Positions 2,026 to 19,713 of a stretch of 26,524 nt of DNA are shown in pieces. Numbering within the stretch: position 1 is the stretch's first letter; each line of letters opens with the position of its first letter. This DNA is from a virus. Taxonomy: Duplodnaviria; Heunggongvirae; Uroviricota; Caudoviricetes. The notes beneath the pieces are model-generated. The model saw nothing but the letters and a program-made list of their open reading frames with translations. It ran no database searches and was not told where the DNA came from. Both the position numbers and the translations under genes were made by a program. The DNA lies in the IMG/VR virus record IMGVR_UViG_2541047721_000003, one strand, 5' to 3'.

Positions 2026-2028
2026 GAT

Positions 2029-2957: not shown

Positions 2958-3589
2958 CGTACAGCCTCCGCAATCCGGCCCAGCACCGTGTTATAAATCA
3001 GGCGCTCATCTGCCTGGCTGATACCCAACAGCTCACGTACCGGGTAATCGGTGAAAATGCCCGGCGCAACCTGATCGCGCTCACCGAACTGATGAACGCG
3101 TGCAATACGTGCGGCCACGCCGCTGTAACCTACCGTCACACCGGAGGCATCTGCACGGGCTTTCAGGTAGCGGGCGGTGCGCAGTTTTACGAACATGGGG
3201 ACGCGCTTTGTGCTGTCCTGGTTGATGCGCCGGGTGCGTATTTCCAGAAAACGGTCGATGTCATCCCGGTAAAACGTGCGGATATTGTTTTTATCCTCAT
3301 CCCACCCGGTGATGGTTCGCCCGTATTTCCCCGTGTCGTGATGCCAGTTTTTCAGCGTGCGTGCTTCGTTATTCCAGATAAAGCGAATGCGTTCCTGTAT
3401 CCGGGTTACGCGGCGTCTGCGTGGTGTCCACGCGGTCCCGTCCGGCGCTTTCTGTGACCGGATACGCGCCTGCTGGGCGCGGCGTAAATCCTGTGCCAGC
3501 TTTCTGGCGATGTTATTGATGGCCTGCTGATTCAGGCTGTCGCGGATGGCCTCAAAGGTTTCATCCACGCGGGTGAATGCCTTATCCAT
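2954..3589 (-). CDS. S: Tail completion / virion morphogenesis protein gpS-like
   Basis: Follows R and overlaps its 3' end, as R/S do in P2. Contains an HQFG..PG.F..YP segment typical of the gpS family. Start ambiguous: ATG 3589 or GTG 3598. Longer than P2 gpS (about 150 aa). Confidence 0.65.
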   Translation of the reverse strand: MDKAFTRVDETFEAIRDSLNQQAINNIARKLAQDLRRAQQARIRSQKAPDGTAWTPRRRRVTRIQERIRFIWNNEARTLKNWHHDTGKYGRTITGWDEDKNNIRTFYRDDIDRFLEIRTRRINQDSTKRVPMFVKLRTARYLKARADASGVTVGYSGVAARIARVHQFGERDQVAPGIFTDYPVRELLGISQADERLIYNTVLGRIAEAVR

Positions 3590-4049
3590 CGCTTTCACCC
3601 CACGTCACATCCTGGAATACATGCGACCAGTCGCCTTCGGAAGATGGCAGGCGGGGTTTTGGCTCCGGCAGGTGTTCTGCCTGCGGTGTGCCCTGACTGT
3701 TGCGCGTGATGCGAACGCGTTCCCGCAGGGGGAGCGTAAACAGGAGATCGGCGCTGTCATCGTCATTGATAACGGCGGAGAATTTGATGTCCTGATTACG
3801 CTCAGGGTTGAGCAACAACTGTGGCTGATTTTCGGATAACCACGCCAGCAGCGGCAGCGTGAGGTCGTCCAGCTCTCCGGCGTAATCCATGACAAACATC
3901 ACCATCTGATAGCGGTAAACAAACGAGGGCGTTTCCCCGGTCGTTTCAATGTTGCCGCTCTCCACGAAAATGGTGAATTTCTCGGGATTAGCCTGGCACC
4001 ACCGACACCCATGAAGCATGGACTCTCGCAGACTGTTTGTCTTAAACAT
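3582..4049 (-). CDS. R: Tail completion protein gpR
   Basis: 155 aa, the same length as P2 gpR. LLAWLSENQP-type motif region resembles gpR. ATG at 4049. Confidence 0.8.
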   Translation of the reverse strand: MFKTNSLRESMLHGCRWCQANPEKFTIFVESGNIETTGETPSFVYRYQMVMFVMDYAGELDDLTLPLLAWLSENQPQLLLNPERNQDIKFSAVINDDDSADLLFTLPLRERVRITRNSQGTPQAEHLPEPKPRLPSSEGDWSHVFQDVTWGESDG

Positions 4050-4072
4050 CTGTTTTGCTCTCCTGCTCTTCC

Positions 4073-5950: not shown

Positions 5951-6228
5951 TGTGTTACTCCCGTCTGGTGTGTCAGTTCGGCTATTCTCTTATCCAGTTC
6001 AGCAATGGCCCGTTTATCCGCGTTACAGGTTTCCAGTGCATCCAGAAGGCGGTCGCCCCATATTCCGAGGTTTCCCCATGTGGGTGGGTCAGGGAAGGGG
6101 GGAGGCGTTACCGGCATGGTCAGCGTCTGCGGTATAAGCCGGACTGACGGCGCTGGCCCTGGCGCGTTCTGCGTGCCTGCGCAACCTGTCAGTAAAACGA
6201 GCGTCAGGCAAAGCGTGGGCGCATTCAT
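5947..6228 (-). CDS. lysC: o-spanin (Rz1/LysC-like outer-membrane lipoprotein)
   Basis: Starts in the +1 frame inside the Rz-like gene and extends past its stop (overlapped architecture, as in P2 lysB/lysC). Product MNAPTLCLTLVLLTGCAG... has a lipobox (LLTGC) and is proline-rich. ATG at 6228; the longer frame from 6258 is GTG-initiated. Confidence 0.65.
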   Translation of the reverse strand: MNAPTLCLTLVLLTGCAGTQNAPGPAPSVRLIPQTLTMPVTPPPFPDPPTWGNLGIWGDRLLDALETCNADKRAIAELDKRIAELTHQTGVTQ

Positions 6229-6484
6229 CTTTTGCAATATCGTTGCGTAGCTGTTCACGTCTTACCTCTCCGTCCTGATTGCGTTGCTGATTTTCCGCGC
6301 GGAGCTGAGCCAGCACCTGCTGCATATCCTGTACCCCGGCGCTGATGATATTCAGTGTGTCGACGGTACTTTTCAGGGTGCTGGCCTGCGCTTCGTTTCT
6401 GGCGTTCTCCCGGCCCAGCGACCACGACAGACGCATGGATGTAATCAGAAGGAAAGCGACGCCAAGCGTGGGCCAGAGCTTCAT
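6089..6484 (-). CDS. lysB: i-spanin (Rz/LysB-like)
   Basis: ATG at 6484 overlaps the endolysin stop (ATGA). N-terminal TM segment (MKLWPTLGVAFLLITSM) followed by a charged, Q/R/E-rich helical region. Contains the embedded o-spanin gene. Confidence 0.65.
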   Translation of the reverse strand: MKLWPTLGVAFLLITSMRLSWSLGRENARNEAQASTLKSTVDTLNIISAGVQDMQQVLAQLRAENQQRNQDGEVRREQLRNDIAKDECAHALPDARFTDRLRRHAERARASAVSPAYTADADHAGNASPLP

Positions 6485-6873
6485 GCCGGATAGGCTCCGT
6501 GTGGTAACTGAAAATGCGGTCCGTCTTTCAGGGTCTTCCAGTCGCCGCCCCATTCCACCGGAATATTCAGTTCCTGGCTGGCCTGTCTGAATGCTGCTGC
6601 GATTTTTTCGTACAGCGGCCATTCCCATGACACCTGGTTGCCGACATAAGCCACAACATCCACGGCATGCCCTGTGAGATGGCGACTGTTCATGGTCTGG
6701 CTCTTGCCTGTGGTCACGAGCTGCTTCTGACGATAACGACTGCGCAATCCTTCGGTGATACCAAAATCCACTTCCGAGATTTCCAGCGCCCGTCGGGTCA
6801 CTTTCACCAGATCAGGATTTACACCCTGCAAATTCTTTTCGCTCCGGCTGCTGAATTTAAATGTGTTGCTCAT
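6481..6873 (-). CDS. Endolysin, peptidase M15 family (L-alanyl-D-glutamate endopeptidase type)
   Basis: 130 aa. Zinc-ligand style motifs SRHLTGHAVDV and DGPHFQL typical of M15 endolysins. AAGGAGAGG RBS; ATG overlaps the holin stop. Not the P2 K lysozyme type. Confidence 0.8.
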   Translation of the reverse strand: MSNTFKFSSRSEKNLQGVNPDLVKVTRRALEISEVDFGITEGLRSRYRQKQLVTTGKSQTMNSRHLTGHAVDVVAYVGNQVSWEWPLYEKIAAAFRQASQELNIPVEWGGDWKTLKDGPHFQLPHGAYPA

Positions 6874-7193
6874 TCGTTCCTCTCCTTCACCCTGCGATCA
6901 AATATTGCAATAACCTTGTCGCGTGCTTTCTCTGCGCCCATAAAACCGATTGAGGCACCAAAAAACGTCACTGCATCCTCAGGGATCCCGAAGAAGCGCA
7001 GCGACCCGGCCACGGCCATGGCAAGAACGCCGCACGCCAGCGATCCCGTTACGGTCTGAACCAGTGTTCGTCCGTCATAAAGACTCATCAGCGCGGAAAT
7101 GCTGACCGCCGCGCCTACTGCATACACCGTTGGCAGGTGGTCAAAGAGCCACGCAATAACCTGCTCTGTGATCCCTGTTTGAATGGTGCTCAC
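6870..7193 (-). CDS. Holin (putative, about 107 aa, 2-3 TM segments)
   Basis: Directly upstream of the endolysin with stop/start overlap. GTG start at 7193 preceded by GGGGGGAG RBS, just after the X stop. Hydrophobic segments VIAWLFDHLPTVYAVGAAVSISALM and GSLACGVLAMAVAGSL. The 180-aa ORF-track frame extends upstream into X and is not credible. Confidence 0.6.
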   Translation of the reverse strand: MSTIQTGITEQVIAWLFDHLPTVYAVGAAVSISALMSLYDGRTLVQTVTGSLACGVLAMAVAGSLRFFGIPEDAVTFFGASIGFMGAEKARDKVIAIFDRRVKERNE

Positions 7194-7195
7194 TG

Positions 7196-7396
7196 CTACT
7201 CCCCCCACAACTGAATCATTTCTCGTTTCTTCTTCTCCGGCTCCGGCATCTCCACTTCCTGCCCGGCGTCCAGAAATACCTGCTGACAGAGTCCGGGGTT
7301 GGCATCCAGCACCTTTTCGGTGACGCCCTGTGTCGTGCCGTAGTACCGGAAACAGAGCGAATCCACGGTGTCGCCTTCCAGTGCCTTCACTTTCAT
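7196..7396 (-). CDS. X: Tail protein gpX
   Basis: 66 aa from ATG 7396 (MKVKALEGDTVDSLCFRYYG...), matching P2 gpX in size and N-terminal pattern. Overlaps the L stop (TGATG). Confidence 0.8.
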   Translation of the reverse strand: MKVKALEGDTVDSLCFRYYGTTQGVTEKVLDANPGLCQQVFLDAGQEVEMPEPEKKKREMIQLWGE

Positions 7397-7890
7397 CAGC
7401 ACAGCTCCGCAAACATTCGCGGTCGTCCCAGAATGTCAGAGATGGCCCAGCTCACATCGCGCCACAAATCCGATGTCTGTATATCCAGTGCGTCCGCCCG
7501 GCGATCGCCCTTGTCCGTTGTGTCCGCATCGCGGTAACGCTCCAGAATCAGGGCACGTGTGGCGGTATAAACAGCATTGCGCCAGTGCCAGAGATTGACG
7601 CTTTCTCCGTTAATTACGGGTGCCGGAACATCGGCCAGCGTCTGATGGCCAGCCGCCTGCTGTTCCTGCTGCCACGCTTCCAGCTCGCGGGTAACGTGTG
7701 CTATGGCCCCGGTGGCGGTATGCAGCAGGCGGGAGGTGGTCACGCGGCCCGGCAGTCGTACCGCCAGACGCAGCTCACGCAGCACAATATCCGGCCAGAA
7801 TGCACCCGCTGAAATACGGGTATCACCATCATCGGTATCGGTGATGTCGTCCTCTGCGGGGCCGGGGTTGGTTCTGGCAACCATACTCAT
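7396..7890 (-). CDS. L: Head completion / stabilisation protein gpL
   Basis: About 164 aa from ATG 7890 (AGGAG RBS 8 nt upstream); the track's 7899 start is GTG. C-terminal DLWRDV..W..I.G.PR region resembles P2 gpL. Confidence 0.8.
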   Translation of the reverse strand: MSMVARTNPGPAEDDITDTDDGDTRISAGAFWPDIVLRELRLAVRLPGRVTTSRLLHTATGAIAHVTRELEAWQQEQQAAGHQTLADVPAPVINGESVNLWHWRNAVYTATRALILERYRDADTTDKGDRRADALDIQTSDLWRDVSWAISDILGRPRMFAELC

Positions 7891-7991
7891 GGGGTTCACT
7901 CCTGAAAAAATCGGGCGGTGGGTGTGCGGTGTAAACGGTCACGGAGTCAAACCGGAACACCGCGCACGCCGCCCGCTGACGGGGTCAGTCG

Positions 7992-8792
7992 TTAACCGCG
8001 CTTTGCCTTCTGCGTCGCGGTGGTTTTTCGTGTTGCAGGCTTCCGCGTTGTCTTTTTACTTTTGCTGCTTTCGTCCTGCGCCTGCGGTGTGCTGGCATCT
8101 TCTGGTGCGGCTCCGGAATCAGCTTTTTTCAGGGCGCGGGAAAGGGTTGCAATCTCGCGTTTCACACCTGCGTTCGGGTTCAGATGCATCGCTTCGCGCA
8201 GCAGCTTCAGTGATGAGGCCATGCTGTCCGCATCGCTCAGGCCACGGCGGGCAAAGGCGCACGCCTTGCATAATTTGGCGCGCACTTCGTCCGGCATATC
8301 CTGGTTGGCGACAATTTCCCAAAGTGTGTCCAGTGGTTCGATAAAGGCGGATAAATCCGCGTCGGCATCCGTCCCGGCCTGCGTCAGTACCGGGTTGCAG
8401 ATTTCTTCGGTCAGTACCGTGGCGGCAGTACGTCCAAAGTTATCCGGCATGATGAGGTTGTGACGGACCACATATGCACCAATACGCAGCGCCAGCGGAA
8501 GATCGCCGCAGTCAATCGCCCACACCATCAGCGTGGCAATCACTTCGTCCTGCTGCCCGCCGTCAGCCTCCAGCGTTCCCTCAATCCAGCCGGAAAAGTC
8601 CGGCAACAACTCTTTTTTGATGGCGGCTTTCGAGCTTCTGGCCTGTACGCCCTTAAGCCGGGCCTGTGCCAGACGCAGACGATACAGCACCTCTTCATGC
8701 GCGGTACGCGCGGCGTGGTCCACACCTTCATTCGCCCGGCCTGCGCGCTGTGCCATCACGTTCTGCCAGTGTTGTTGTGCAGGAGTAATCAT
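7992..8792 (-). CDS. M: Terminase small (endonuclease) subunit gpM
   Basis: 266 aa, ATG with GGAGAG RBS. Position between N and L as in P2. Basic K/R/T-rich C-terminal tail. Confidence 0.78.
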   Translation of the reverse strand: MITPAQQHWQNVMAQRAGRANEGVDHAARTAHEEVLYRLRLAQARLKGVQARSSKAAIKKELLPDFSGWIEGTLEADGGQQDEVIATLMVWAIDCGDLPLALRIGAYVVRHNLIMPDNFGRTAATVLTEEICNPVLTQAGTDADADLSAFIEPLDTLWEIVANQDMPDEVRAKLCKACAFARRGLSDADSMASSLKLLREAMHLNPNAGVKREIATLSRALKKADSGAAPEDASTPQAQDESSKSKKTTRKPATRKTTATQKAKRG

Positions 8793-8837
8793 TTTTTCTC
8801 TCCGTTACAGGCGGGCATGATGCCCGCCGTGAGTTGA

Positions 8838-9890
8838 TTAGCTGTCGGCGAACTTCAGGCCAGTGATCATCGCGCACTTGCCATAGTCTTCAACGACATA
8901 AGCGTCATTGATGGACTGGTAGGTGGCGATGCGGTTGTATTCCGGCTCGTCTTTCATCAGGCGACGCATTGAACCTTTCTGCCAGTAAATCGACAGGTTG
9001 TTGAACGAGGTGATCAGCATCGTTGAATCCGGGAAGAACGGCGCAAGGAATACATCCAGTCCGCCAATGGCGCGCGATGACAGGATGAGCTGTCCGGCAA
9101 GTAATTCCGCATTGGGATTCTGGCCGCTGATGCTGTTCAGCACGGGCAGACGCAGCGAGTTAAACAGGTTGCGCCCCATAATCACCACGAGGTCGTCAGC
9201 TTCCTTGTGCCATTCATCCAGCAGGGATGAGCGCGCATCCTGTACCAGAGCATCGGCATTCGCATACTTACCCGCGTGCGCCACAGTGTTGTCCATGTTG
9301 CGGGAGGTCAGCGTCACGTCATTCATTACGCGCTCGCTGGCATCGGTTCTGATGTGCTCCAGCCAGCCCACGTTTACGTCCTGAAGCAGCTTGTTGGTGT
9401 GAAAATCAGACTCGTAGGCGTGGGATGTGCCGTTAAAGCCAATCATGATGCGATCAAGCGCTACCTGCCGGGCGATCTGTGTACTGATACGGGACTGAAA
9501 ATCGCTGTGGGCCGCCCAGGTATCAAGCTGTGGGTACGAAATAAAGGTATCGTAGTTCACCTGTTCGCACTGGTACTGACGAGACTTCATATCGATCACG
9601 TTATTCGGGTTACGGCGTTTGATGCCGTCATAACTGCTATTCGTGCGCGCAATTGGCCCGGTGGTGTCCAGGAGGATTTTTTCGCCTTTCTGGTCGGTCA
9701 CGCCGATCACGTTAATTCTTTTCGTAAATTCGGTACTTTCCTTTGAGGCGTTTTCAAAACGTTGCTGCACCGCGGGTTCCACGGTAAATCGCGATACCAG
9801 TGCGGAAACCGGGATATTGTTAAGCGACGCCTGCTGCGCCATATAGCAACCCAGCTTGTTGCGGGTAATATCTGACATCACCAGATTCAT
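8838..9890 (-). CDS. N: Major capsid protein gpN
   Basis: 350 aa, ATG at 9890 with AAGGAG RBS. Multiple segments resemble P2 gpN (FNGT, VGWL, DLVVI.GR, NLSIY, YVVEDY). Confidence 0.88.
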   Translation of the reverse strand: MNLVMSDITRNKLGCYMAQQASLNNIPVSALVSRFTVEPAVQQRFENASKESTEFTKRINVIGVTDQKGEKILLDTTGPIARTNSSYDGIKRRNPNNVIDMKSRQYQCEQVNYDTFISYPQLDTWAAHSDFQSRISTQIARQVALDRIMIGFNGTSHAYESDFHTNKLLQDVNVGWLEHIRTDASERVMNDVTLTSRNMDNTVAHAGKYANADALVQDARSSLLDEWHKEADDLVVIMGRNLFNSLRLPVLNSISGQNPNAELLAGQLILSSRAIGGLDVFLAPFFPDSTMLITSFNNLSIYWQKGSMRRLMKDEPEYNRIATYQSINDAYVVEDYGKCAMITGLKFADS

Positions 9891-9913: not shown

Positions 9914-10750
9914 TCAGAAGTCAGCCAGTTGATCGGAGGCTGCGCCCGTTGCGGTGAACCGGTTCTGCGGATCGCCGTCCTGCGTGCGCAGTTTTTCCTT
10001 CAGTGCTGTCAGCTCTGTGGTCAGTAAAGTGATTTTCTGGCTGTCCTGCTGATGGCGGGTTTCCAGCGCATTAAAACGGTCGATAATGTCGGCCTGTGAC
10101 GTTGCGACGCCTTCCACCGCTTCCTGAATACGGGAGAAACTGGCGTCATCCGCTTTGCGGCCACGGCCAATAATCCCCATTACGCGGTTAAACCACTGGG
10201 TGCCTTCTTCCTGGCGTTGTTCTGCCATTTCGATGATTTCAGACTCGATGGCTTCGGAGATAAGCGGTGCTTCACCCTGGACACTGTTGAACGTCATCAC
10301 CGCCTGACGTTGCTGTGCCGTGAATTTCAGGCGTTCAGTGCCCAGGCTTGCCGGGGTGTCGGTCATCGCCAGCCCGACCAGATAGGCGCGCCCGTTAACG
10401 GAGAACTGCGGGTGCAGTTCGATACTGGAATAGATTTTCTTGCCGTCAGCGACAAGCTGCTTCATGCGCTCGGTCGGTTCGATTTCTGCATACAGCGCAG
10501 TACGTCCGGCCAGCGGGCCTTCCGTAATATCTTCCGTACTCAGCGCGGTGACATCGCCCATTGCGGAAAATTCGCTTGACGGGCATGGCGAGAGATAGTG
10601 CTCAACGTTCACGCGGGCAGCGTAAACATCCGGGTTGAAGTTCTCGGCGGCTTCACGCAGATGTACCTGGCTGATTTCGCGGCCATCAACAGTTGATCCG
10701 GAGACAGCCACGCGAAACTTTTTGCGGGATGTCTTTTTTTCATTAGCCAT
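9914..10750 (-). CDS. O: Capsid scaffolding protein gpO
   Basis: ATG at 10750 preceded by AGAGGGG RBS gives MANEKKTSRKKFRVAVSG..., like the P2 gpO N-terminus. An upstream in-frame ATG at 10783 lacks an RBS. Confidence 0.82.
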   Translation of the reverse strand: MANEKKTSRKKFRVAVSGSTVDGREISQVHLREAAENFNPDVYAARVNVEHYLSPCPSSEFSAMGDVTALSTEDITEGPLAGRTALYAEIEPTERMKQLVADGKKIYSSIELHPQFSVNGRAYLVGLAMTDTPASLGTERLKFTAQQRQAVMTFNSVQGEAPLISEAIESEIIEMAEQRQEEGTQWFNRVMGIIGRGRKADDASFSRIQEAVEGVATSQADIIDRFNALETRHQQDSQKITLLTTELTALKEKLRTQDGDPQNRFTATGAASDQLADF

Positions 10751-10783
10751 AGTTTTTGCCCCTCTGACTGGTTCTTCAGTCAT

Positions 10784-10904: not shown

Positions 10905-12656
10905 ATGATTCAGGACGCTTTTGTGCGCCAGCGTGCGCGGCAACTTTACTGGCAGGGTTATCCGCCCGCAGAAATATCACGTCTGATGGGAATAAACCCG
11001 AACACGATTTATGCGTGGAAAAAACGCGACCAGTGGGATGAAACGCCACCCGTGCAGCGTGTCACGCAGTCCATCGATGCGCGCCTCATCCAGCTTACTG
11101 AAAAACAGAATAAAACAGGCGGTGACTTTAAGGAAATAGACCTGCTGACCCGGCAGCTTAAAAAAATGCATGATGGCCAGCCGGATGCGACGGCCACAGG
11201 AAAGAAAGGCCGGGCGAAAAAACTCAAAAATCATTTCACGCCGGAACAGATTGCCGCACTGCGGGAAAAAATCATCAGCAGGCTGGAGTGGCATCAGCGG
11301 GGCTGGTTTGACTCCCTGACCCTTTGCAGGGAAGCCGGGATACGTAACAGGATGATCCTGAAATCCCGACAGATTGGCGCGACCTGGTATTTTGCACAGG
11401 AAGCACTGCTGATGGCGCTGCGTGACGATGTGGCGCAACCTTACCAGCGTAACCAGATTTTTTTGTCTGCGTCGCGTCGTCAGGCGTTCCAGTTTAAAAG
11501 CATTATTCAGAAGGCTGCGGCTGAAGTTGATGTGGAGCTGAAAGGGGGCGATAAAATCATCCTCTCCAACGGCGCAGAGCTGCATTTTCTCGGCACTTCT
11601 GCTGCGTCGGCGCAGTCCTATACGGGCAATTTTTATTTTGATGAATTTTTCTGGGTCAGTCGCTTTGCTGAACTGCGCAAGGTGGCTGGCGCTATGGCAA
11701 CCCTCAGCGGATTGCGGCGCACCTACTTCTCCACGCCATCCACCGAAACGCACGAGGCATACGCCTACTGGAACGGCGACCGCTGGAACGAGAAAAAGGC
11801 CACGCATAAACGCCAGCGTTTTTCTGTGGACTGGAAAACGCTGCATAACGGGCTTATCTGCCCTGACCGGACGTGGCGGCAAATTGTCACGCTGGAAGAT
11901 GTGGTTAATCACGGCTGGAAACACACCGATATCGACGAAATTCGTGATGAAAACACCGAAGACGAGTTCCTCAATCTCTATATGTGTGAGTTTGTCCGCG
12001 AAGGGGAATCGGCATTTAACCTGAATATCCTGATTGGCTGCGGTGTTGACGGATACGACGACTGGAAAGACTGGAAACCTTTTGCTCCCCGCCCGATAGG
12101 GAATCGTCCGGTATGGATTGGGTATGACGCAAACGGCAGCAGTGGAAACGGCGACAGCGGCGCTGTGTCCGTGGTGGTTCCTCCGGCTGTTCCTGGCGGC
12201 CGTTTTCGAACGGTGGAGACGCGACGCGTTCAGGGGCTGGAGTTTGAAGAACAGGCCAGAGTCATTGAAGAGTTCACGTGTCGCTACAACGTGGAACACA
12301 TCGGCATTGATGTGACAGGCGGGAACGGGGAGGCTGTTTATCAGATAGTGAAGCGGTTTTTCCCTGCTGCTATTCCGTACACCTTCACGCTGTCATCAAA
12401 ACGGTCGCTGGTACTGAAAATGCTGCAAATAATGCGTGCCGGGCGGTGGGAATACGATCGCGCCGAACGCGAGTTGGTCGCAGCCTTTAACGCCGTGCGT
12501 AAGGTGAAAACACCGGGCGGCTTTATCACTTACGAAACGGACCGCGCGAGGGGGATCAGCCACGGCGACCTTGCGTGGGCAACCATGCTTGCTGTCATTA
12601 ACGAACCAATTGGCGGCGAAGGAGAAAACGAGCGTTTCACGGTTATGGAGTTCTGA
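10905..12656 (+). CDS. P: Terminase large (ATPase) subunit gpP
   Basis: 583 aa, ATG with GGGGGAG RBS. N-terminal LYWQGYPPAEISRLMG...YAWKKRDQWDE resembles P2 gpP. Divergent from O as in P2. Confidence 0.88.
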   Translation: MIQDAFVRQRARQLYWQGYPPAEISRLMGINPNTIYAWKKRDQWDETPPVQRVTQSIDARLIQLTEKQNKTGGDFKEIDLLTRQLKKMHDGQPDATATGKKGRAKKLKNHFTPEQIAALREKIISRLEWHQRGWFDSLTLCREAGIRNRMILKSRQIGATWYFAQEALLMALRDDVAQPYQRNQIFLSASRRQAFQFKSIIQKAAAEVDVELKGGDKIILSNGAELHFLGTSAASAQSYTGNFYFDEFFWVSRFAELRKVAGAMATLSGLRRTYFSTPSTETHEAYAYWNGDRWNEKKATHKRQRFSVDWKTLHNGLICPDRTWRQIVTLEDVVNHGWKHTDIDEIRDENTEDEFLNLYMCEFVREGESAFNLNILIGCGVDGYDDWKDWKPFAPRPIGNRPVWIGYDANGSSGNGDSGAVSVVVPPAVPGGRFRTVETRRVQGLEFEEQARVIEEFTCRYNVEHIGIDVTGGNGEAVYQIVKRFFPAAIPYTFTLSSKRSLVLKMLQIMRAGRWEYDRAERELVAAFNAVRKVKTPGGFITYETDRARGISHGDLAWATMLAVINEPIGGEGENERFTVMEF

Positions 12657-13702
12657 TGAGCAGAAAAAATAAAAAAGTGCGCATGAGTTCACGCATTGAT
12701 CTCGCTGATGCGCTCAGGAAAGAATCATCGCTCAGTGCATTCACATTTGATGGTCCTTATCGCCTGACCGGGCATGACCTGCTGGACAATATGTACTGTG
12801 CTGATAACGGGCGGTGGTATGAAACCCCGGTGGACTGGTACGGTCTGGCAAGAGCAGCCCGGCAAACGTCCTGGCATCAGTCTGCGCTTTACTTTAAGCG
12901 CAATGTATTACTCGGTTGCTACATCCCGCACCCGCTGCTTTCCCGGCAGGATTTCTCGGCGCTGGCGCTGGACTGGTTTGTGTTCGGTAACGCATTCCTT
13001 GAGCTTCGAAGCAATATGCTCGGCGAACCGCTTAAATTACGGCACGCCCTGGCGAAATATATGCGACGCGGAAGCGATCTTGAATCATGGTGGTATGTGC
13101 AGGATGGCAAGGACGCGTTTCAGTTTCGTCCTGGCAAAGTGTGCCACCTGATGAATCCGGATATTAACCAGGAAATCTACGGCATGCCGGAATATCTTGG
13201 CGCATTACTCTCGGCCAGCCTTTCTCATTCGGCGGACATGTTCAGAAAACTGTACTACGACAACGGATCCCACGCCGGGTGCATCATCTACATCGGTGCA
13301 GCGCAGGTAAACCGCGAAAGCATGGACTCCCTGAAAGAAACGCTACAGGGGGCACGTGGTGGTGGTGCGTTTAAAAACGTGCTCATTCATGCGCCCAACG
13401 GGGGCAAAGAGGGGGTGCAAATTTTGCCGTTCCAGCAGATCACCGCAAAAGATGAATTCATGAATGTTAAGGCGGCATCCCGTGATGATGTGCTGGCTGC
13501 GCACCGCGTTCCGCCGCAACTGATGGGGGCGATGCCGGGCGAAAAAAGTGCGTTTGGCGATGTGGAGAAGGCAGCGCGGGTTTACGCAATTAACGAGCTG
13601 ATGCCCGTCATGGAGGCTATGAAGCACATCAATGACTGGCTTGGCGAAGAGGTGATCCGTTTTAACTCTTATGCTCTTCTTGATGAAAAAACAGCCCCGT
13701 GA
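12656..13702 (+). CDS. Q: Portal protein gpQ
   Basis: 348 aa (P2 gpQ about 344 aa). ATG overlaps the P stop (ATGA). Followed by a bidirectional terminator. Confidence 0.85.
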   Translation: MSRKNKKVRMSSRIDLADALRKESSLSAFTFDGPYRLTGHDLLDNMYCADNGRWYETPVDWYGLARAARQTSWHQSALYFKRNVLLGCYIPHPLLSRQDFSALALDWFVFGNAFLELRSNMLGEPLKLRHALAKYMRRGSDLESWWYVQDGKDAFQFRPGKVCHLMNPDINQEIYGMPEYLGALLSASLSHSADMFRKLYYDNGSHAGCIIYIGAAQVNRESMDSLKETLQGARGGGAFKNVLIHAPNGGKEGVQILPFQQITAKDEFMNVKAASRDDVLAAHRVPPQLMGAMPGEKSAFGDVEKAARVYAINELMPVMEAMKHINDWLGEEVIRFNSYALLDEKTAP

Positions 13703-13718
13703 TGGGGCTGTCCTTTTT
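13691..13718. terminator. Bidirectional intrinsic terminator between convergent Q and the 174-aa gene
   Basis: 8-bp perfect stem ACAGCCCC/GGGGCTGT (13691..13698 / 13704..13711) with loop GTGAT, flanked by an A-run upstream and a T-run downstream. The Q stop codon lies in the loop. Confidence 0.6.
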
Positions 13719-14241
13719 ACCAGAGTTGAACCATTTTCTGGGTGCCGTCAGGCTTGAGATTATCAATTTCAGAGAGAACGTAATATTGAATGGCTTCACA
13801 AACGGTGGTGTAGGGGGAATTACCTTCTTTAAGTGGCACGATATTATTATTAACGCGAACCTGTATTTCATCGTTATACATTGCGATCGAAACAGGCGTG
13901 TGCACGAACGCGACTTCGCCAGGTGTGTCGTCAACCACCGTTTCAATACTAAAAGTCAGTTTTCGCTCATCATTGCTGCCCCGTGCTTTGGGGGTAGCGG
14001 CAGGGATCTGGGATAAAGGCATTCTGCGAAATCCTTCGGCTGCTTCCAGTCCGCATGAAACGTAATGCTGGCGATTACCGTCGCTATCTGTCCAGGTCTG
14101 TGATGGCAGCTCCAGCGAGATTTCATAAGCATCAACAATGCCCTGGGCAAGGCGTACAAGCGGGGTCAGATCTTCATTGCGGCGAAAGCTCTCCTTTACC
14201 TGCTCCCGTTTTTCTCTTAACTGCTTGTAATTAATGACCAT
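13717..14241 (-). CDS. Hypothetical protein, about 174 aa (cargo gene between portal gene and cos-like region)
   Basis: ATG at 14241 with GGAGG RBS 7 nt upstream; the track's 14280 start is GTG. Lower GC than flanking structural genes by eye. No recognisable motif. Confidence 0.5.
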   Translation of the reverse strand: MVINYKQLREKREQVKESFRRNEDLTPLVRLAQGIVDAYEISLELPSQTWTDSDGNRQHYVSCGLEAAEGFRRMPLSQIPAATPKARGSNDERKLTFSIETVVDDTPGEVAFVHTPVSIAMYNDEIQVRVNNNIVPLKEGNSPYTTVCEAIQYYVLSEIDNLKPDGTQKMVQLW

Positions 14242-14340
14242 AAGACAGCCTCCATTGATTTCTTTGCTCGTATTTTGCACTTATGAAGTATGGTCGGCAA
14301 GGTGCCGTATCGCTGACGCGCTTCGCTTGTCTGCTGCTTC

Positions 14341-14369
14341 GCCGGGGCATAAAAAATTTATGCCCCGGC
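14341..14369. other. Perfect 13-bp-stem palindrome GCCGGGGCATAAA-AAA-TTTATGCCCCGGC
   Basis: Read directly from the sequence; 100 bp upstream of the 174-aa gene start. Possible terminator, operator or RNA structure. Confidence 0.4.
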
Positions 14370-14627
14370 TCTCCAGCTCCTGTATCAATCAGATAATTTC
14401 ACGACGCCTTCCAGTTTATCGCCACCATCGACGGTCAGACTCTTACGCAATTCCACCGCGTTGACTGCATGTTCTCGCTGCCTCAGTGCGATTTTGACGG
14501 CCTTACCTTTCACCCCATCAAATCAAAAGCCCTCACGCCTTTTTCATGCTCAGCGTGAGAAATATGGCCATTCTGTTGTGTCTCTGCGACATCGTTCAGG
14601 GAATGCTATTTACCCCCTGAAACGCGG

Positions 14628-14651
14628 GCTGTTCCCCCGTCACCTGCGCGC
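14628..14651. other. Candidate cos (cohesive end) region
   Basis: GCTGTTCCCCCGTCACCTGCGCGC partly resembles the reverse complement of the P2/186 cos core (GGCG(A/T)GGCGGGGAAAGCA, recalled from memory). Orientation relative to Q is as expected. Unverified. Confidence 0.3.
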
Positions 14652-14740
14652 AGAAAAAACGCGTTTTTTTGTGCACGCACGGATCCCTGACGGATCCAGC
14701 CGCCACGCGGGCCGGAAGGGCAAAAAGTCGTTCAAAAAAA

Positions 14741-14767
14741 TTGTGCAAATTTGTGCACTATTGTGCA
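14741..14767. repeat. Three tandem TTGTGCA iterons with exact 10-bp spacing (a fourth copy at about 14669)
   Basis: TTGTGCAAAT TTGTGCACTA TTGTGCATTG read directly. Adjacent to the AAAAAACGCGTTTTTT palindrome (14653..14669) and the ACGGATCC direct repeat. Confidence 0.5.
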
Positions 14768-14775
14768 TTGAAATA

Positions 14776-14797
14776 AACGCCCTGGAAGAGGGCGTTT
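14776..14797 (-). terminator. Intrinsic terminator of the minus-strand operon ending at 14808
   Basis: Stem AACGCCCT/AGGGCGTT with loop GGAAG, about 10 nt after the stop of the 112-aa gene, followed on the minus strand by a T-rich tract. Confidence 0.55.
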
Positions 14798-14807
14798 TGG
14801 CTCATTT

Positions 14808-15146
14808 CTATAGCTTTGATGCAGGCTGGGCTAGGTCTCCTTTGATGCCAGTGTTTACAACCTGACAAGCCTCTTTGAGTACCCAGTCAACAGCGTCTTT
14901 CCATGCTCCGGTTTCGGCTGGCGGATTCTCACGCTTTACCAGTTCATAGAATCGTACTGCTCTAACCAGTCCATCTGACGGTTTTGCCTGTAGTGCAGCC
15001 TGAGCTATGCGGTATGCCTGGAGCATACGGGCGTCGTTGATATCCATTCCGAACGGAATTTCTGATGATTGTGATTCTGCATCTTCAAGCCTGGCAATTT
15101 CTTTACGTAAAAAGTATTTCAACTCTTGTTTTTGTTTTCTGTTCAT
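14808..15146 (-). CDS. Hypothetical protein, 112 aa (co-operonic with the ClpX-ZBD-like gene)
   Basis: ATG at 15146 overlaps the stop of the upstream gene (ATGA). Predicted largely helical and charged. No recognisable motif. Confidence 0.55.
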
Positions 15147-15475
15147 GCGTTTTTTCCCTTTTTGTCTGTCACTTCTCTCCTGATAATTTCATTGCACAAA
15201 TCCACGCACTCATTGCAGATGCAAACAGACGGTCCGGCAATCACCTTTGTGACTTCGTACTGAGATTTATTGCAGAAGCTGCAATAAATCGTCTCCTCGC
15301 CTGAAGTCCATGTTTTGCTGGTTTCGCCAGACATCAGTTGTTTGAGGTCTTTTTCACGACGAAGAACTATCTGGCCACATTCAGCTATTTTTTGGATGTT
15401 GACATTTTCTTCTTTCGCCAGCGCTTCCATCCGCTCAATCAGTCGCTGCGCTTTTTCTCTGTCAATGTGTTGCAT
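15143..15475 (-). CDS. Small protein with C-terminal ClpX-type C4 zinc-binding domain (zf-C4_ClpX-like), N-terminal coiled-coil-like region
   Basis: 110 aa, ATG at 15475 with AAGGGGGA RBS. Segment [35 protein letters not shown] closely parallels the E. coli ClpX N-terminal zinc-binding domain ([32 protein letters not shown], from memory), including the CxxC...CxxC spacing. Confidence 0.7.
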
Positions 15476-15538: not shown

Positions 15539-15850
15539 TTATTCGGGAAATAACGCCCTGATATTTCCGGCCATCCGACTGGTTATCTGTGAGGTTGGTA
15601 CTGGCTGTGACGCGGGGCGTTCTGTCCTGGTTTGTGTCACTGATAACGCCTCATCGTCAGCCCATGCAGCCAGTCGGTAAGCCTCTGCCGGATTCATTTT
15701 CAGAAGTGCCAGCCCGGCCAGAAAAGCCACACGTTGGCCGCTTTTGCGGGCTTCTGGTGTAAGGCTGTCCAGCCAGGTGCATGCTTCGCCTTCGTTCTTG
15801 ACGGCGGCGGGCTTCAGATAGAAACTTATCCGTCTGGTTGGTGTCGTCAT
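15539..15850 (-). CDS. parR: ParR-like centromere-binding adaptor (RHH)
   Basis: 103 aa from ATG 15850 (AAGGAG RBS), 4 nt after the parM stop. RRISFYLKP...AFLAGLAL...ALFPE parallels plasmid R1 ParR (RTIAFKLNP...ALTAGLAL...SLFPKE, from memory). Confidence 0.68.
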   Translation of the reverse strand: MTTPTRRISFYLKPAAVKNEGEACTWLDSLTPEARKSGQRVAFLAGLALLKMNPAEAYRLAAWADDEALSVTQTRTERPASQPVPTSQITSRMAGNIRALFPE

Positions 15851-15854
15851 TGGT

Positions 15855-16814
15855 TTACTCCTTGTCCATTGCGTACAGCCCATTAACCAGAGCAAACTGT
15901 GGCACCCCGTCCGCGATGAAAGTCGCATTAACTCCGCAGGCTTCGCGGATAGCGGGTGCCACAATCTCCGCCCCGCCACCGACAACCATCACCCGCCCGT
16001 AACCCGAAAAACCCGCCAGCGCGCGGATCACTCGTTGTTTCAGTGTTTCTTCCTTTTCACGAATAACCGCCATCAGGCTGTCGTAATGCGCGTCATTGTG
16101 GATGTGCTGGCGCAGCCAGGCTTCATCATGGCGATGTTCGATAATGGTATTGGCGATGTGGTGACTGGTGCGCATACCGTTAGTGGCCATCACCGACAGT
16201 ACGGCATCGGCCATCAGAGAAACGCCTACGTGTGGATCGCAAAACACCTGGCTGATACCTGCCAGTTGCCCCTGAACCTTTGCCACATCCAGCGTGGTTC
16301 CGCCCAAATCCACAATCAGCAGGGATTCAAACGGACTCATGTCAGCCAGTGCCTTAAAGCCAGCCGGAATGGATTCAGGCATAACCCGCACGTTACGGAT
16401 AGTGAATGCTTCGCCGTTCTGGTACTCCACCGGGCGCATAACGTTCGCTTTTTTGCGGTTGATGTTGGCCATGTCCGGCTGTGCGTTTGTGTCGAAATAC
16501 TCGCTCAGTGGCAGGGTGACAACCACATCCACCTCCTGTGGCGTGATGCCTGATTTGACCAGCGCGTGATGAATGGCAATTACATTCACATCGCTGTACT
16601 GGTATTGCGTGTCGGTCGTCTGGACAAATCGAACGCTGACCGGATCAAAACCATAGCGCACGCCATCAAGCATGTAGTTTGCGGGCTGCATGCCACCGAA
16701 CGGCGCAGACCATTCCGATTTGAAGCTGTTCGGGCTGATGGCGTTGCGGCGTTCGCCGTTCTCAGTCCATGCCAGCTTGATGTTGGTGGAGCCGTCGTCG
16801 ATACAAATTTTCAT
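15855..16814 (-). CDS. parM: ParM/StbA-like actin-type segregation ATPase
   Basis: 319 aa. MKICIDDGSTNIKLAW N-terminus and segments ISPNSFK, YSDVNV..HHAL, VMPE.IPAG, LLI.DLGGTTLD, GVSL, V.GGGAE, LVNG closely parallel R1 ParM (about 320 aa, from memory). AAGGA RBS. Confidence 0.85.
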   Translation of the reverse strand: MKICIDDGSTNIKLAWTENGERRNAISPNSFKSEWSAPFGGMQPANYMLDGVRYGFDPVSVRFVQTTDTQYQYSDVNVIAIHHALVKSGITPQEVDVVVTLPLSEYFDTNAQPDMANINRKKANVMRPVEYQNGEAFTIRNVRVMPESIPAGFKALADMSPFESLLIVDLGGTTLDVAKVQGQLAGISQVFCDPHVGVSLMADAVLSVMATNGMRTSHHIANTIIEHRHDEAWLRQHIHNDAHYDSLMAVIREKEETLKQRVIRALAGFSGYGRVMVVGGGAEIVAPAIREACGVNATFIADGVPQFALVNGLYAMDKE

Positions 16815-16845
16815 GTCGATTTTCCTTATGTTGATTAATTAATCG

Positions 16846-16956
16846 TTTACGGGGTTTTTAAATCCCGTTTTTGCCTGTTTTATGCGCGCTTCATATATCG
16901 CGGCGCGTTTTTTGCTCATTTACGGGTTTTGTGAATCCCGTTTCTGTCTGTTTTTT
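16846..16956. repeat. parC-like region: two about 38-bp direct repeats flanking a putative promoter
   Basis: TTTACGGGGTTTTTAAATCCCGTTTTTGCCTGTTTTAT (16846..16883) and TTTACGGGTTTTGTGAATCCCGTTTCTGTCTGTTTTTT (16919..16956), each with an ACGGG...CCCGT inverted sub-element. Lies immediately upstream of parM and overlaps the last codons of A. Confidence 0.5.
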
Positions 16957-19713
16957 GTTTCCACTGGTCAGGCTACCCCGCAGCAGGTCTGCTTTGCGGC
17001 GGGCGCGTTCAGTGGTTTCACTGATTCTCTGTGCGTGCTCTGCGTCACGGATGGCGCGCAGCATGTCAGAAAGCACGGTAACGGGGGTTTTCATGGTGTT
17101 CTGGTCCTGCTGAAGTGTGGATGCCAGGCGTGCGGCGGCTTCGGGGTCTGATGCCCCCAGCTGTTCCAGATAGCCGGCGACCGGGTTATGGCGGATCTCC
17201 GTGCTGCTTACGCCGTGATTACGGCTCAGGCGCTGCCAGAGCTGCGTGATTCGGCTGTCCGGGCGGGTATCCGGTTTGCGTACAATTTCAAATCCCTGCG
17301 GTGCAATGATGCTGCCGTCAACGTACAGGCTGCCGCCCCGTAACAGGTGCTGCATCTGCTGTTCACCGATATGCAGGCCGAGAGATTCGGCAGACTCCCG
17401 CCATTCTTTAGCGAGTAATTCGTGGTTATCAGGCAAAGGCCGCTGCTGTTTGCGGCTCTGTGTCCAGCTCTGCATTTCATCACTGCTGTTTTTTGCCTGT
17501 TTATCATGAAGCGAACGCATCAGCGCCCGGCGTTCGTGCCGTTTCAGTGAGCGCATCCATTCGTTCACTTCAACGCCATCAGGGAGCTGCGGCCACGGTG
17601 CTGGCCGTTCTTCCGGCTGTTCTGCCCCGTTGTTGTTCGTTTCCTGTACACGGGGACAGTTATTGCCACGAGTCCAAGGGGCGGCAGGGCCGCCCTGAAG
17701 GTCAAAACCATTTTCGCGGGCGCTGTCTTCCGTTTCCGGTTTACGTCTTACCAGTTTCCAGTTATCCGGATGCGTGCACACACGGGAGGATTCCCCGATG
17801 AGTGGTGACCAGATCCCGTAAATCTGTACGCTCTGTTCGCCGTAATCATTCAGCTCATCTGCGAGGTCGTAGGCGGTGCGAATCAGGTAGTCTTTGCGTG
17901 GAACAAGTACGCCGCCCTGTTTTTCAATGTAGGTGGCAAAACACCCGGCATCGGCGGCAGCGAGTACCGCATCCATTGCGTCATCTTTCAGTCGTTGCGG
18001 GCCTTCCGGGTTGCGTGCCATCTGGCTGGCAAGGCGGCGCAGTTCACGCCACACCTGACGGGAGGGGATGCCAAAGAACTGGAACTGGCGGACCCGATGA
18101 AGGCGCGCCCAGCCGATGGCGCGCTCCACACTCTCGGCCATTGATTTTCCGGTTTCGTGGTCAACGCGTGGCTTGCCCGTTTTCGGGTCGATGCCATCCA
18201 CGGCGCGGCTGTCCAGGTTCTTTCCGATGTAGGTCGCGATATAGCTGGTTGGTGTGCCTTTTGAGCCGTCGACGTACTCCGCTTTAAAACGCGGAGTTAT
18301 GTCATCGCCCAGCTCGTGGCGGTCTTCCTGAATGGCAATATCGCAGACGTGGGACACGATGGTTTCAATCTCGTCCGGATGTGCAAAGACCATCATATGC
18401 CAGTGCACAGTGCCGTCATGGTGAGGCTCCACCGTGCGGATGCCATACCAGCGAAGACCGTCGCGGTTCAGTTTTTTGCGGACCGCCGCAAAAAAAGTGT
18501 TAACCAGGTAATCGCTGGAGTCGCGCATGGTGGCCCCGTTCCATTTGGGATTCGGATGACCGTTCTCCGTTGTTGCGTGGTATTTTGACGGGCAGGTAAC
18601 GGTCAGAAACACCGCTCTGTCGCTACGGGCTTCGGCCAGAAGTTCCAGTCCCTTCATGGTGGCCATCATTTCTGCCTTACGGTGAACCGGGTTACTTACT
18701 CCCGCGTAATACACTGTCTCGAGATCAATCGTGAACCCGTCTTCATTTTCCAGCATGAAACTTTTCAGGAAATCGCGTGTTTTCTCGCGCTGTGCGCGAA
18801 ACTCGCTTAACGCGTCCTGGCTCAGATAGGGCGATGTTTTTCTGGAAACCAGACAGGCGGCGCGGAGTTGTTCTTCCCGCCACTCGCAACGTAACAGCCA
18901 CAGTTTGCGTTTCCACCATTCCGCACAGGTCAGGCGAAGGATTGCGCCCGGCAGCAGTTCTGTGTCCGGTTCGTTCCTCCGGTCTTTGTCTGTTGTCAGT
19001 GCGTCATAATGCGGAGGCATGGCGTGCAAGTGTAACGCCATGCGGGCTAGCATCTGATACGCCTTCAGCGTTACATCCATGGTCAGCTCGCCATCAGTCG
19101 CGCCAAAACCATCGCAGAGTTTTTCGAAGGTGCTGCTGAACATCGCCGCCGTCATGGTGGCCAGCGTCTGTATCTGGTGTTTGTTGAGTTGCGGCAGGTA
19201 AAGCAAATCGTCCAGGCGTTCGCGTCCGGCAAGGGACCGATAACCCGGTGTCAGCCAACGGCTGTCGGTGCGGTCCAGACGTACGAATATTTTGCGCAGG
19301 GTTCCGCGCGCGTAGCGTTCAGCCTGCCAGCTCTTTTTGCCTTTCTGGCGATCGGCTTCCTGTTTTTTGCGCAGGAAGGAGAGGTGGCGAATAAGCGGAT
19401 CGCGCAGATAGGACGGCAGCAGGCGCAGCGAGGCCATGGCTTCATCCACCGCGCCGCGTGCCTGTTTTCTGGCGTCTCCTGCCAGTGTGATGGTTTTGTC
19501 CTGTTTTTCCTGTGCGTCCAGGTTTTTATTAATCAGGTTGCCCAGCGGCGTTGCGGAGAACGCCGCATCAGCCATTTCCTGGCGGCGCTCGTTCTCTGCC
19601 CGGTAGGCATCCAGCCAGGAGGAAAGCGCGGATTCAGGTGCGGGGATCCCCGTTCCTTCACGCCCCACTGCGTGGCGCGGTTGTTGCCAGTCCCTGATGT
19701 ACTCTGCCGTCAT
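16891..19713 (-). CDS. A: Replication initiation endonuclease gpA (rolling-circle, HUH superfamily)
   Basis: 940 aa. HUH-type motif VHWHMMVF and paired catalytic tyrosines Y-x3-Y (SYIATYIGK, about residues 491/495 by manual count), as in the P2 A protein. Longer than P2 gpA (about 761 aa). Confidence 0.85.
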   Translation of the reverse strand: MTAEYIRDWQQPRHAVGREGTGIPAPESALSSWLDAYRAENERRQEMADAAFSATPLGNLINKNLDAQEKQDKTITLAGDARKQARGAVDEAMASLRLLPSYLRDPLIRHLSFLRKKQEADRQKGKKSWQAERYARGTLRKIFVRLDRTDSRWLTPGYRSLAGRERLDDLLYLPQLNKHQIQTLATMTAAMFSSTFEKLCDGFGATDGELTMDVTLKAYQMLARMALHLHAMPPHYDALTTDKDRRNEPDTELLPGAILRLTCAEWWKRKLWLLRCEWREEQLRAACLVSRKTSPYLSQDALSEFRAQREKTRDFLKSFMLENEDGFTIDLETVYYAGVSNPVHRKAEMMATMKGLELLAEARSDRAVFLTVTCPSKYHATTENGHPNPKWNGATMRDSSDYLVNTFFAAVRKKLNRDGLRWYGIRTVEPHHDGTVHWHMMVFAHPDEIETIVSHVCDIAIQEDRHELGDDITPRFKAEYVDGSKGTPTSYIATYIGKNLDSRAVDGIDPKTGKPRVDHETGKSMAESVERAIGWARLHRVRQFQFFGIPSRQVWRELRRLASQMARNPEGPQRLKDDAMDAVLAAADAGCFATYIEKQGGVLVPRKDYLIRTAYDLADELNDYGEQSVQIYGIWSPLIGESSRVCTHPDNWKLVRRKPETEDSARENGFDLQGGPAAPWTRGNNCPRVQETNNNGAEQPEERPAPWPQLPDGVEVNEWMRSLKRHERRALMRSLHDKQAKNSSDEMQSWTQSRKQQRPLPDNHELLAKEWRESAESLGLHIGEQQMQHLLRGGSLYVDGSIIAPQGFEIVRKPDTRPDSRITQLWQRLSRNHGVSSTEIRHNPVAGYLEQLGASDPEAAARLASTLQQDQNTMKTPVTVLSDMLRAIRDAEHAQRISETTERARRKADLLRGSLTSGNKKQTETGFTKPVNEQKTRRDI

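Follow-up and report, generated by a model that had tools for sequence, protein, structure and literature searches.

The window, by which is meant the whole stretch of 26,524 nucleotides analysed (virus record IMGVR_UViG_2541047721_000003), is a prophage of the P2 family belonging to the P88 group (genus Xuanwuvirus, Peduoviridae), as indicated by its map of open reading frames (ORFs), by family scans and by DNA matches. Positions 13600-15300 are 98.5% identical to phage PhiR44_2 and 96.6% identical to P88, and the prophage lies in the reverse of the usual P2 map. The region considered here is the non-coding stretch 14281-14807, next to the portal gene side of the prophage, in which an earlier note had described three phased TTGTGCA repeats and a segment resembling the cohesive-end site (cos) of P2 and 186. 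With a probability of about 0.75, positions 14600-14767 are the cos site of this P88-type prophage and the repeats are its recognition arm for packaging by the terminase subunits gpM and gpP. The genes on both sides are the following.

7992-8792, minus strand: gpM, small terminase subunit of the P2 type (PF05944, E = 1e-36; phrog_74)
8838-9890, minus strand: gpN
9914-10783, minus strand: gpO
10905-12656, plus strand: gpP, large terminase subunit (ATPase), named from the annotation of the 98.5% identical PhiR44_2; 44% identical to P2 gpP
12656-13702, plus strand: portal gpQ
13717-14280, minus strand: gene of 174-187 amino acids (aa), function not assigned (phrog_5091)
14808-15475, minus strand: two small accessory genes
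15539-15850, minus strand: ParR-like protein (Plasmid_stab_B)
15855-16814, minus strand: ParM
16891-19713, minus strand: gpA-type replication protein

The whole head module is 37-47% identical to its P2 counterparts, and a cognate P2-type terminase (the PF05944 protein gpM together with gpP) is encoded on the same element as the predicted cos. In the records of P2 and 186, cos is found directly past the end of the portal gene, and this is therefore the region of the window in which a cos site is expected. The predicted core lies between gpQ and the replication and accessory side, and its G-rich strand reads toward Q, as in P2 and 186.

The stretch 14281-14807 (527 bp) is the largest without genes in the window, as the earlier note had it, provided that three ORFs are set aside. 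Two plus-strand ORFs of the mechanical ORF list, which span the cos site and a terminator, are treated as spurious. The third, a minus-strand ORF of 42 aa at 14385-14513 that is given as hypothetical in some phage records, had no family match, and its 45 unique homologues had 22, 18 and 15 variable sites by codon position, thus no sign of selection on a protein; it was rejected as a gene. As far as can be told, the stretch is non-coding.

The core and the parts of the cassette

The motifs listed in the earlier note were all recovered. The three TTGTGCA copies start at 14741, 14751 and 14761, at a spacing of exactly 10 bp, and a fourth copy, which had not been listed, was found at 14669-14675. 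The direct repeat ACGGATCC is present at 14679-14686 and 14690-14697, the palindrome AAAAAACGCGTTTTTT at 14654-14669, and a palindrome with perfect 13-bp arms (14341-14353 and 14357-14369) around a loop of 3 nt lies further toward the portal gene. The word TTGTGCA itself is not enriched in the window (10 matches, 6.3 expected), but four of the ten lie within the same 100 bp, and the others are scattered singles of which none is arrayed. The phased pattern GTGCA-N5-GTGCA-N5-GTGCA, allowing up to two mismatches, was matched three times, the mean for shuffled sequence being 0.11, and 100 shuffles never gave as many as three.

Read on the minus strand, and with positions counted from the first base of the cohesive end or core, the cassette has the following parts.

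14741..14767, minus strand: three TGCACAA repeats, starting at -123, -113 and -103; outer edge of the conserved cassette
14731..14740, minus strand: T7 tract TTTTTTTGAA directly after the third repeat; AATTTTTTTGA is at least 90% conserved in sequences not selected for it
14709..14726, minus strand: conserved block TTTTTGCCCTTCCGGCCC between the repeats and the spacer, found also in phiT5282H and in the satellite-like elements L014 and L015 described below
14676..14708, minus strand: spacer of conserved length and variable sequence, holding both ACGGATCC copies with two GATC sites
14669..14675, minus strand: fourth TGCACAA repeat, with its start at -31 and an A tract after it; TGCACAAAAAAA
14654..14669, either strand: palindrome AAAAAACGCGTTTTTT (A6CGCGT6) separating the fourth repeat from the core; most relatives lack it or have an imperfect form
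14645..14652, either strand: TGCGCGCA, a conserved 8-bp palindrome abutting the core; phage SEN4 has TGCGTGCG in the same place
14644-14626, minus strand: predicted cohesive-end core (cosN) GGTGACGGGGGAACAGCCC; 13/19 to the P2 end
14595..14625, minus strand: left, portal-side flank of the cut, partly common to the satellite L014

The left flank holds a 7-bp inverted repeat (TTCAGGG at 14595-14601, CCCTGAA at 14615-14621). Across the predicted cut the minus strand reads ...TGCACAAAAAAACGCGTTTTTTCTGCGCGCA/GGTGACGGGGGAACAGCCC/GCGTTTCAGGGGG..., where the strokes mark the limits of the core. The core shares 13 of 19 positions with the left cohesive end of P2, GGCGAGGCGGGGAAAGCAC, and is directed toward the portal gene, which agrees with the earlier description of a P2/186-like core at 14628-14651 in the expected orientation; it is identical at 11 of 19 positions both to the 186 end and to the end of RSA1. 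Intermediate forms are found in the Salmonella phage SEN4 (...AAAAAAGCGGGGTTTCTGCGTGCG/GGCGAGGCGGGGGAACGAGC) and in the satellite L015 (GGCGACGAGGGGAGGGCGC, a 14/19 match to P2), and the 17-mer of the core is present in at least 120 viral contigs. By homology with P2 the core would give 5' cohesive ends of roughly 19 nt; the top-strand nick is expected at 14644/14645 or no more than 2 nt beyond it in the direction of 14647.

One other register was considered, in which TGCGCGC-AGG-TGACGG is laid on the P2 sequence TGCGCGC-TGACGG just after the P2 cohesive end and the A6CGCGT6 palindrome becomes the cohesive end. It was rejected because all four matches in repeat position are then lost, because the resulting A/T-rich end is unlike that of any member of the family, and because SEN4 aligns ...TTTCTGCGTGCG/GGCGAGG with ...TTTTCTGCGCGCA/GGTGACG.

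Two scans of IMG/VR gave no contig starting or ending at the core, most of the matches being prophages excised from isolate genomes. Among whole metagenome contigs, three of 30 end within 33 nt of the core, where 0.25 would be expected (Poisson P about 0.002), and a contig of 12.7 kb from a metagenome-assembled genome (MAG) ends inside the core beside an adapter-like 9-mer. Such ends weakly suggest a cut at this place, since assemblers also break at the edge of a cassette that is common to several elements. The 12.7-kb contig (QAKE01000006.1, 12,723 bp, labelled as a Bacillota MAG; loci L033 and L040) carries the enterobacterial cos cassette at both of its ends, with a terminal redundancy of about 516 bp; the end that stops inside the core reads ...GGTGACGGGGGGACAG, and the 9-mer beside it is TACACATCT. 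It is probably a satellite or small phage of roughly 12.2 kb that was binned into the wrong genome.

Conservation of the repeat geometry

Conservation was examined in sets of loci that had been picked by only one part of the cassette. The P88-type set consisted of IMG/VR loci picked by the core 17-mer alone, of which 114 had enough upstream DNA. A perfect phased triple 122-124 nt upstream of the core was present in 93 of these and the fourth site, at 30-32 nt, in 109; most loci lacking the perfect triple have versions with one mismatch in the same phase. In the converse selection, one genome per bacterial species was scanned for the repeat pattern alone. This gave about 26 loci in Enterobacterales (Escherichia, Salmonella, Citrobacter, Enterobacter, Klebsiella, Kluyvera, Pantoea, Erwinia, Mixta, Trabulsiella, Kosakonia and others), with the core at the same distance wherever the stored DNA reaches it.

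The mean conservation along the cassette, calculated for 104 unique core-picked sequences of the P88 type, was as follows.

Upstream of the repeats: 0.42
Repeats and T tract: 0.95
CCCTTCCGGCCC block: 0.83
Spacer: 0.78
Fourth repeat and A tract: 0.95
Right half of the A6CGCGT6 palindrome: 0.71
TGCGCGCA: 0.94
Left arm: 0.80, falling to 0.70

The repeats are thus the best conserved elements outside the core, and their conservation in relatives, which the earlier note had left to be checked, is borne out. The T7 tract beside them is possibly a bend or part of a protein site. In the spacer the sequence is replaced in the relatives from Enterobacter, Pantoea and Erwinia as well as in the satellites. 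Most relatives read ACGCGCTTTTT, an imperfect palindrome, at the A6CGCGT6 site, and other genera have unrelated sequence there. Because the profile is low at these places, the A6CGCGT6 palindrome and the ACGGATCC pair are regarded, from the alignment, as lineage-specific spacer sequence and not as conserved sites. The two GATC sequences of the spacer are Dam sites within GGATCC (14682-14685 and 14693-14696). Many relatives of both the P88 and the P2 type keep a word GGATC or GGCGCGG(A/T)C at about -45 to -57, which may represent a fifth, weakly conserved element.

The same layout was found in phages and satellites with other cos sequences. The word measured was TGCA[T/C], with positions relative to the first base of the cohesive end. 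The ends of P2, 186, P4 and phiCTX were taken from the annotation of their records, and those of RSA1 have been determined experimentally (PMC5694545).

P2: -123, -111, -101, -29
186: -124, -111, -101, -29
P4: -124, -111, -101, -29
RSA1: -129, -110, -100, -35, -29
SEN4: -134, -121, -111, -101, -37, -29
phiCTX (as [TC]GCAG): -110, -100, -84, -38, -29
Window (as TGCAC): -123, -113, -103, -31

Phased TGCAY repeats at about 100-125 nt before the cut, a feature derived here and not a published criterion, are accordingly present in the window. The third distal repeat is separated from the proximal one by 72 bp in the window and equally in P2, 186 and P4; with this gap and the 10-bp phase, all four TGCACAA sites therefore lie roughly on one face of the helix. 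The fourth repeat is the counterpart of TGCATTAAAA at -29, with which the stretch identical between P2 and P4 begins. That stretch runs from the TGCAT at -29 to 7 bp beyond the cohesive end and its length, 55 bp, matches the '55-bp core' of P2-type cos (Ziermann and Calendar 1990, as cited in PMC5694545 and PMC3931495).

Compared with the cos sites of P2, 186 and P4, which have 19-nt 5' ends, the site of the window has the same orientation and the same position between the portal side and the replication or hotspot side. It shares with all three the phased TGCAY about 101-124 nt before the core, the 72-bp gap to the proximal repeat, its occurrence in satellites, a G-rich core, a TGCAY that is about 29-31 nt from the core and leads into an A-rich run, and a dyad between this element and the core; with 186 it shares a terminator just outside the repeats. 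It differs from the three in the repeat word, which is TGCAC(AA) instead of TGCAT, and in a spacing of 10/10 instead of 12-13/10 bp. It differs also in the proximal repeat, at -31 instead of -29, in the core, where 6 of the 19 positions are not those of P2, and in the dyad before it: the A/T-rich A6CGCGT6 palindrome occupies the place of a GC-rich dyad in P2, 186 and P4. The cos of the Pseudomonas phage phiCTX (21-nt ends; repeats R3-R6 and an IHF site in record AB008550) has [TC]GCAG at -110, -100 and -29. Its repeat word is GCAG, it belongs to another genus and host, and no DNA homology to the window was detectable outside the core. Taken together, the comparison with P2 and 186 that the earlier note had proposed favours the assignment as cos, core and repeats having the geometry found in P2, 186 and P4. 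Three phased TGCAC followed by TGCACAAAAAA and then, at a similar distance, by the G-rich CGCGAGGGGGTGGGGAGCGCG were also seen outside Enterobacterales, in Thiolinea disciformis (NZ_AQVE01000025.1).

For the P2 type, 105 unique loci were picked by the 19-nt end alone. Their DNA from -140 to -30 falls into 65 clusters below 80% identity, yet 93 loci have TGCA[TC] at -101 (±1), 83 have it at -111 (±1), 64 at -121 to -125 and 100 at -29. Between -99 and -37, every other position-specific word stays below 45% in this set.

The fixed distance between repeats and core bears on the suggestion, also made in the earlier note, that a regulator such as the repressor C binds the repeats. The repeats would then be an operator or promoter for a repressor (C/CI), an Ogr-type activator or a regulator of the accessory genes, and would lie beside cos by accident. 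Cooperative repressors, too, typically have three sites in 10-bp phase, and in P2 the annotated mRNA starts of old-tin (33424 and 33426) lie about 25-55 bp downstream of the TGCAT triple, which could overlap the promoter. The distance to the core is fixed, however, even though the neighbours change, being genes that point at the repeats from behind a terminator in the window, the replication gene, immediately beside them, in phiT5282H and unrelated DNA in the satellites. No sigma-70-like promoter was found at the repeats or reading out of them, and the other TTGTGCA copies of the window occur singly and in no array. Nor do the repeats match the Ogr dyad TGT-N12-ACA: no such dyad, the site of the Ogr/Delta late activators about 55 bp upstream of late promoters, overlaps them, and nearby it is matched only once, at 14574-14591 in the left arm. 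These comparisons contradict the immunity repressor and make any repressor or activator unlikely as the binder, and an accidental position beside cos is given very little credence. Exact matches to the dyad number two in the window. The one in the left arm (TGTTGTGTCTCTGCGACA) is also kept by P88 and 500465-2 and lies about 60 bp upstream of the doubtful 42-aa minus-strand ORF; a late promoter directed at the 174-aa gene might be located there.

Satellites, packaging and the binding protein

Two small integrated elements of E. coli have a cos cassette of the P88 type. One (L014) is found in strain OkiPb01677 near hpt (NZ_AP042483.1, about 144.5-153.9 kb, element 1-9400) and the other (L015) near dapE/ypfN in NZ_CP027323.1 (element 1-9300). 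Both encode an Icd-like protein, a large primase (Toprim or DUF927), an integrase, an Ogr/Delta zinc finger and an unknown protein of 236 aa, and in addition a P2-family major capsid protein (PF05125, 423 aa); the annotation of the 12 kb fetched for them includes neither a terminase nor a portal or tail gene. All that they have in common with the window is the cassette, which begins at the first repeat and ends about 20-45 bp beyond the core. It is 80.7% identical over 166 bp in the first element and less so in the second. The two look like satellites of P88-type helpers that have a capsid gene of their own instead of the sid and psu of P4. Since helper-dependent elements keep what the packaging machinery reads, this retention is the best functional evidence that can be had without experiments.

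Mosaic junctions mark both edges of the cassette. Homology among P88-like phages and in 1149 of 5426 complete E. coli genomes ends at 14767, the outer edge of the repeats, which is also the start of the accessory-gene hotspot next to cos. A hotspot of accessory genes adjoining cos has been described (PMC9122126), and the interval from cos to the portal gene is likewise a known hotspot of insertion (PMC5694545). In one prophage (L013, E. coli AST205, NZ_AP043614.1) homology is lost just past the core. This is a decayed prophage with truncated gpA and terminase genes and a copy of IS421; it joins a right cos arm of the window type to another left arm and another portal gene and exemplifies recombination at cos.

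The satellites also bear on ParR, the third binder put forward in the earlier note. If the repeats were the parC centromere of a partition module, the ParM (15855-16814) and Plasmid_stab_B protein (15539-15850) of the same phage would be the obvious partners, and short repeats in phased arrays are what the known ParMRC centromeres consist of. Classically, though, the centromere of a ParMRC module is upstream of parM. The region upstream of parM in the window (16815-16890) holds one weak 15-nt repeat in two copies, and the TTGTGCA repeats are about 770 bp downstream of the module, past two unrelated genes and a terminator. Repeats are present in phiT5282H and in both satellites, for which no ParM or ParR is annotated in the stretches fetched, and equivalent repeats are present in P2, 186 and P4. 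By this comparison ParR is excluded as the binder, and a centromere at this place is highly improbable.

The TTGTGCA repeats very probably belong to the packaging signal, because the layout recurs across the family, because satellites keep the cassette and because homology stops at the outer repeat. The comparison of sequences establishes what the region is, that its geometry is conserved and that satellite-like elements have retained the cassette. The most likely binder is gpM. It is 37% identical to the gpM of P2, which has TGCAT sites, and 59% identical to that of phiT5282H, which has TGCAC sites, so that the repeat word changes with the lineage of the terminase.

From these comparisons we infer the binding protein, the wrapping of the DNA and the exact nick positions in the following scheme. 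The recognition arm, beyond the cut as seen from the portal gene, would comprise the four TGCACAA sites, the T tract, the CCCTTCCGGCCC block and the spacer of fixed length. An oligomer of gpM would bind the phased sites, and the intervening 72 bp would be bent or wrapped so that the complex is placed over the core at 14644-14626. The terminase would make staggered nicks there, gpP being the subunit that would nick the core, leaving 5' ends of roughly 19 nt, after which packaging would start.

The role of the arm can be compared with phage lambda, whose cos consists of cosQ, cosN and cosB, with R sites for gpNu1 and a bend made by IHF. By analogy, the site of the window would resemble it in having a nick site with a separate repeat arm of roughly 120 bp and a bend or A/T tract between repeats. 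The R sites of lambda, however, lie beside the gene for the small terminase subunit, in the DNA that is packaged first, whereas the repeats of the window are on the opposite side of the cut, that of the replication genes and the hotspot, with the gpM gene about 6 kb away; the terminase proteins of the window (PF05944) are moreover unrelated to those of lambda at the sequence level. A lambda-type cosB has its repeats on the small-terminase-gene side of cosN, and this arrangement was not found here. The term cosB-like used in the earlier note therefore suits the repeats as regards a role in recognition and does not suit them as regards layout.

This position of the repeats can also be read in another way. 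They may belong to the packaging signal and yet serve termination or the processing of ends, as lambda cosQ does, or bind a host bending protein, instead of being where the small terminase subunit primarily binds. With respect to the cut they occupy the right arm, across from the genes for the portal and the terminase; if P2-like phages package from the left end, the DNA of the repeats would enter the head last, which is the position of cosQ and not of cosB. It can be added that the conserved T7 tract and A tract flank the sites and that the phiCTX record annotates an IHF site and the repeats R3-R6 around cos. Against this reading, P4 keeps the right-arm repeats, yet has only 7 bp in common with P2 past the cohesive end on the left, and as the DNA between cos and the portal gene is a hotspot of insertion, the left arm cannot hold an extended recognition site. 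For the same two reasons recognition must rest mainly on the repeat arm. The lineage-dependent fifth base of the repeat (T, C or G) suits a phage-encoded protein better than one of the host. A cosQ-like or host-protein role is accordingly considered a good deal less probable than recognition by gpM, though more so than any role in regulation.

Several observations weigh against the repeats as the recognition arm of a cos site cut at this core. No solved structure was found for the gpM family, and gpP or a host protein could contact the repeats instead. In E. coli P2-type phages, conservation of the right arm that is detectable by BLAST begins only at -29, so that the distal repeats are short conserved islands in free-running sequence. 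The register of the nick is split, in that similarity favours GGTGAC as the first bases and the spacing of the repeats favours a position 2 nt upstream. In the literature, as far as it could be searched, no experimentally mapped ends were found for the P88-type lineage. The only phage record with ends in this region is the linear record of P88_4B11 (LR595891), which begins and ends at a place corresponding to 14721/14722 of the window, in the conserved TTTTTGCCC block. These ends were rejected as a terminus and say nothing about termini, because the authors had set base 1 relative to references after trimming contig repeats.

As a cos site the cassette is a further case of a known feature of the P2 family and thus biologically expected rather than surprising; the fixed geometry of four sites is a testable by-product. 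It places the packaging site for a very common group of E. coli prophages, the cassette being present in the 1149 of 5426 complete genomes mentioned above, and it gives the genome a natural zero point and the adjoining accessory-gene hotspot a fixed edge. It also provides a testable map of the recognition arm of the P2 family, four short sites at fixed distances in otherwise variable DNA, and shows which satellites copy which version of the cassette. To our knowledge there is no structure or footprint for the family of the P2-type small terminase subunit, and the TGCAY sites offer targets for gel-shift, footprinting and specificity-swap experiments.

More tentatively, the four TGCAY sites (at about -121, -111, -101 and -29, with the 72-bp gap) could be the recognition code of the small terminase subunit throughout the P2 family, with the fifth base setting the pairing of helper and satellite. 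Such a code, so far unmapped, would span phages of Escherichia, Salmonella, Ralstonia and Pseudomonas. The fifth base (T in P2, 186 and P4, C in the P88 type, G in phiCTX) would decide which helper packages which satellite, and the P88-type phages would have a satellite guild of their own, which copies the code and carries a P2-family capsid gene instead of sid and psu.

Hairpins and genes flanking the site

The cos site is probably bracketed by two terminators. The palindrome with the 13-bp stem at 14341-14369 folds as RNA at -27.2 kcal/mol on the minus strand (z = -5.9) and at -24.9 kcal/mol on the plus strand (z = -5.3). Its counterparts are the annotated terminators tQ of P2 and tW of 186, and it is conserved in P88_4B11, about 25 nt from the portal gene. 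It is a probable bidirectional terminator between the left arm of cos and the portal side, outside the cassette. In the window the 174-aa gene is inserted between this hairpin and the portal gene, which has a hairpin of its own at 13691-13711. The second hairpin is found just outside the repeats.

14775..14797, either strand: hairpin AAACGCCCT-N5-AGGGCGTTT with T-rich tails on both strands; -14.8 and -15.6 kcal/mol

It is probably the terminator of the minus-strand accessory genes. In 186 the equivalent place is taken by the terminator t95b, and other relatives have different hairpins there.

The gene of 174-187 aa at 13717-14280 on the minus strand, which separates the portal gene from the left arm of cos, is present in PhiR44_2 and absent from P88 and P88_4B11. 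It had no match in Pfam or PADLOC. Its site is the insertion hotspot between cos and Q that has been noted for phiCTX (ctx) and for retron-carrying relatives of 186.

On the other side, the small accessory genes within 14808-15475 matched no known defence family, and a defence role of the flanking small genes was rejected as PADLOC gave no hit. One of the encoded proteins has 112 aa, and part of its gene (14836-14975) is 88-93% identical to the DNA of unrelated lambdoid phages and podophages. The other, of 110 aa, has a C4 zinc finger of the ClpX type (PF06689) and is likewise encoded at the cos-adjacent hotspot. Between this hotspot and gpA, the ParM actin-like segregation protein and the ParR-like protein are found inside a P2-family prophage. 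The replication protein at 16891-19713 has 940 aa, of which the match to the gpA family (PF05840) covers residues 179-503, with long extensions at the N- and C-terminal ends.

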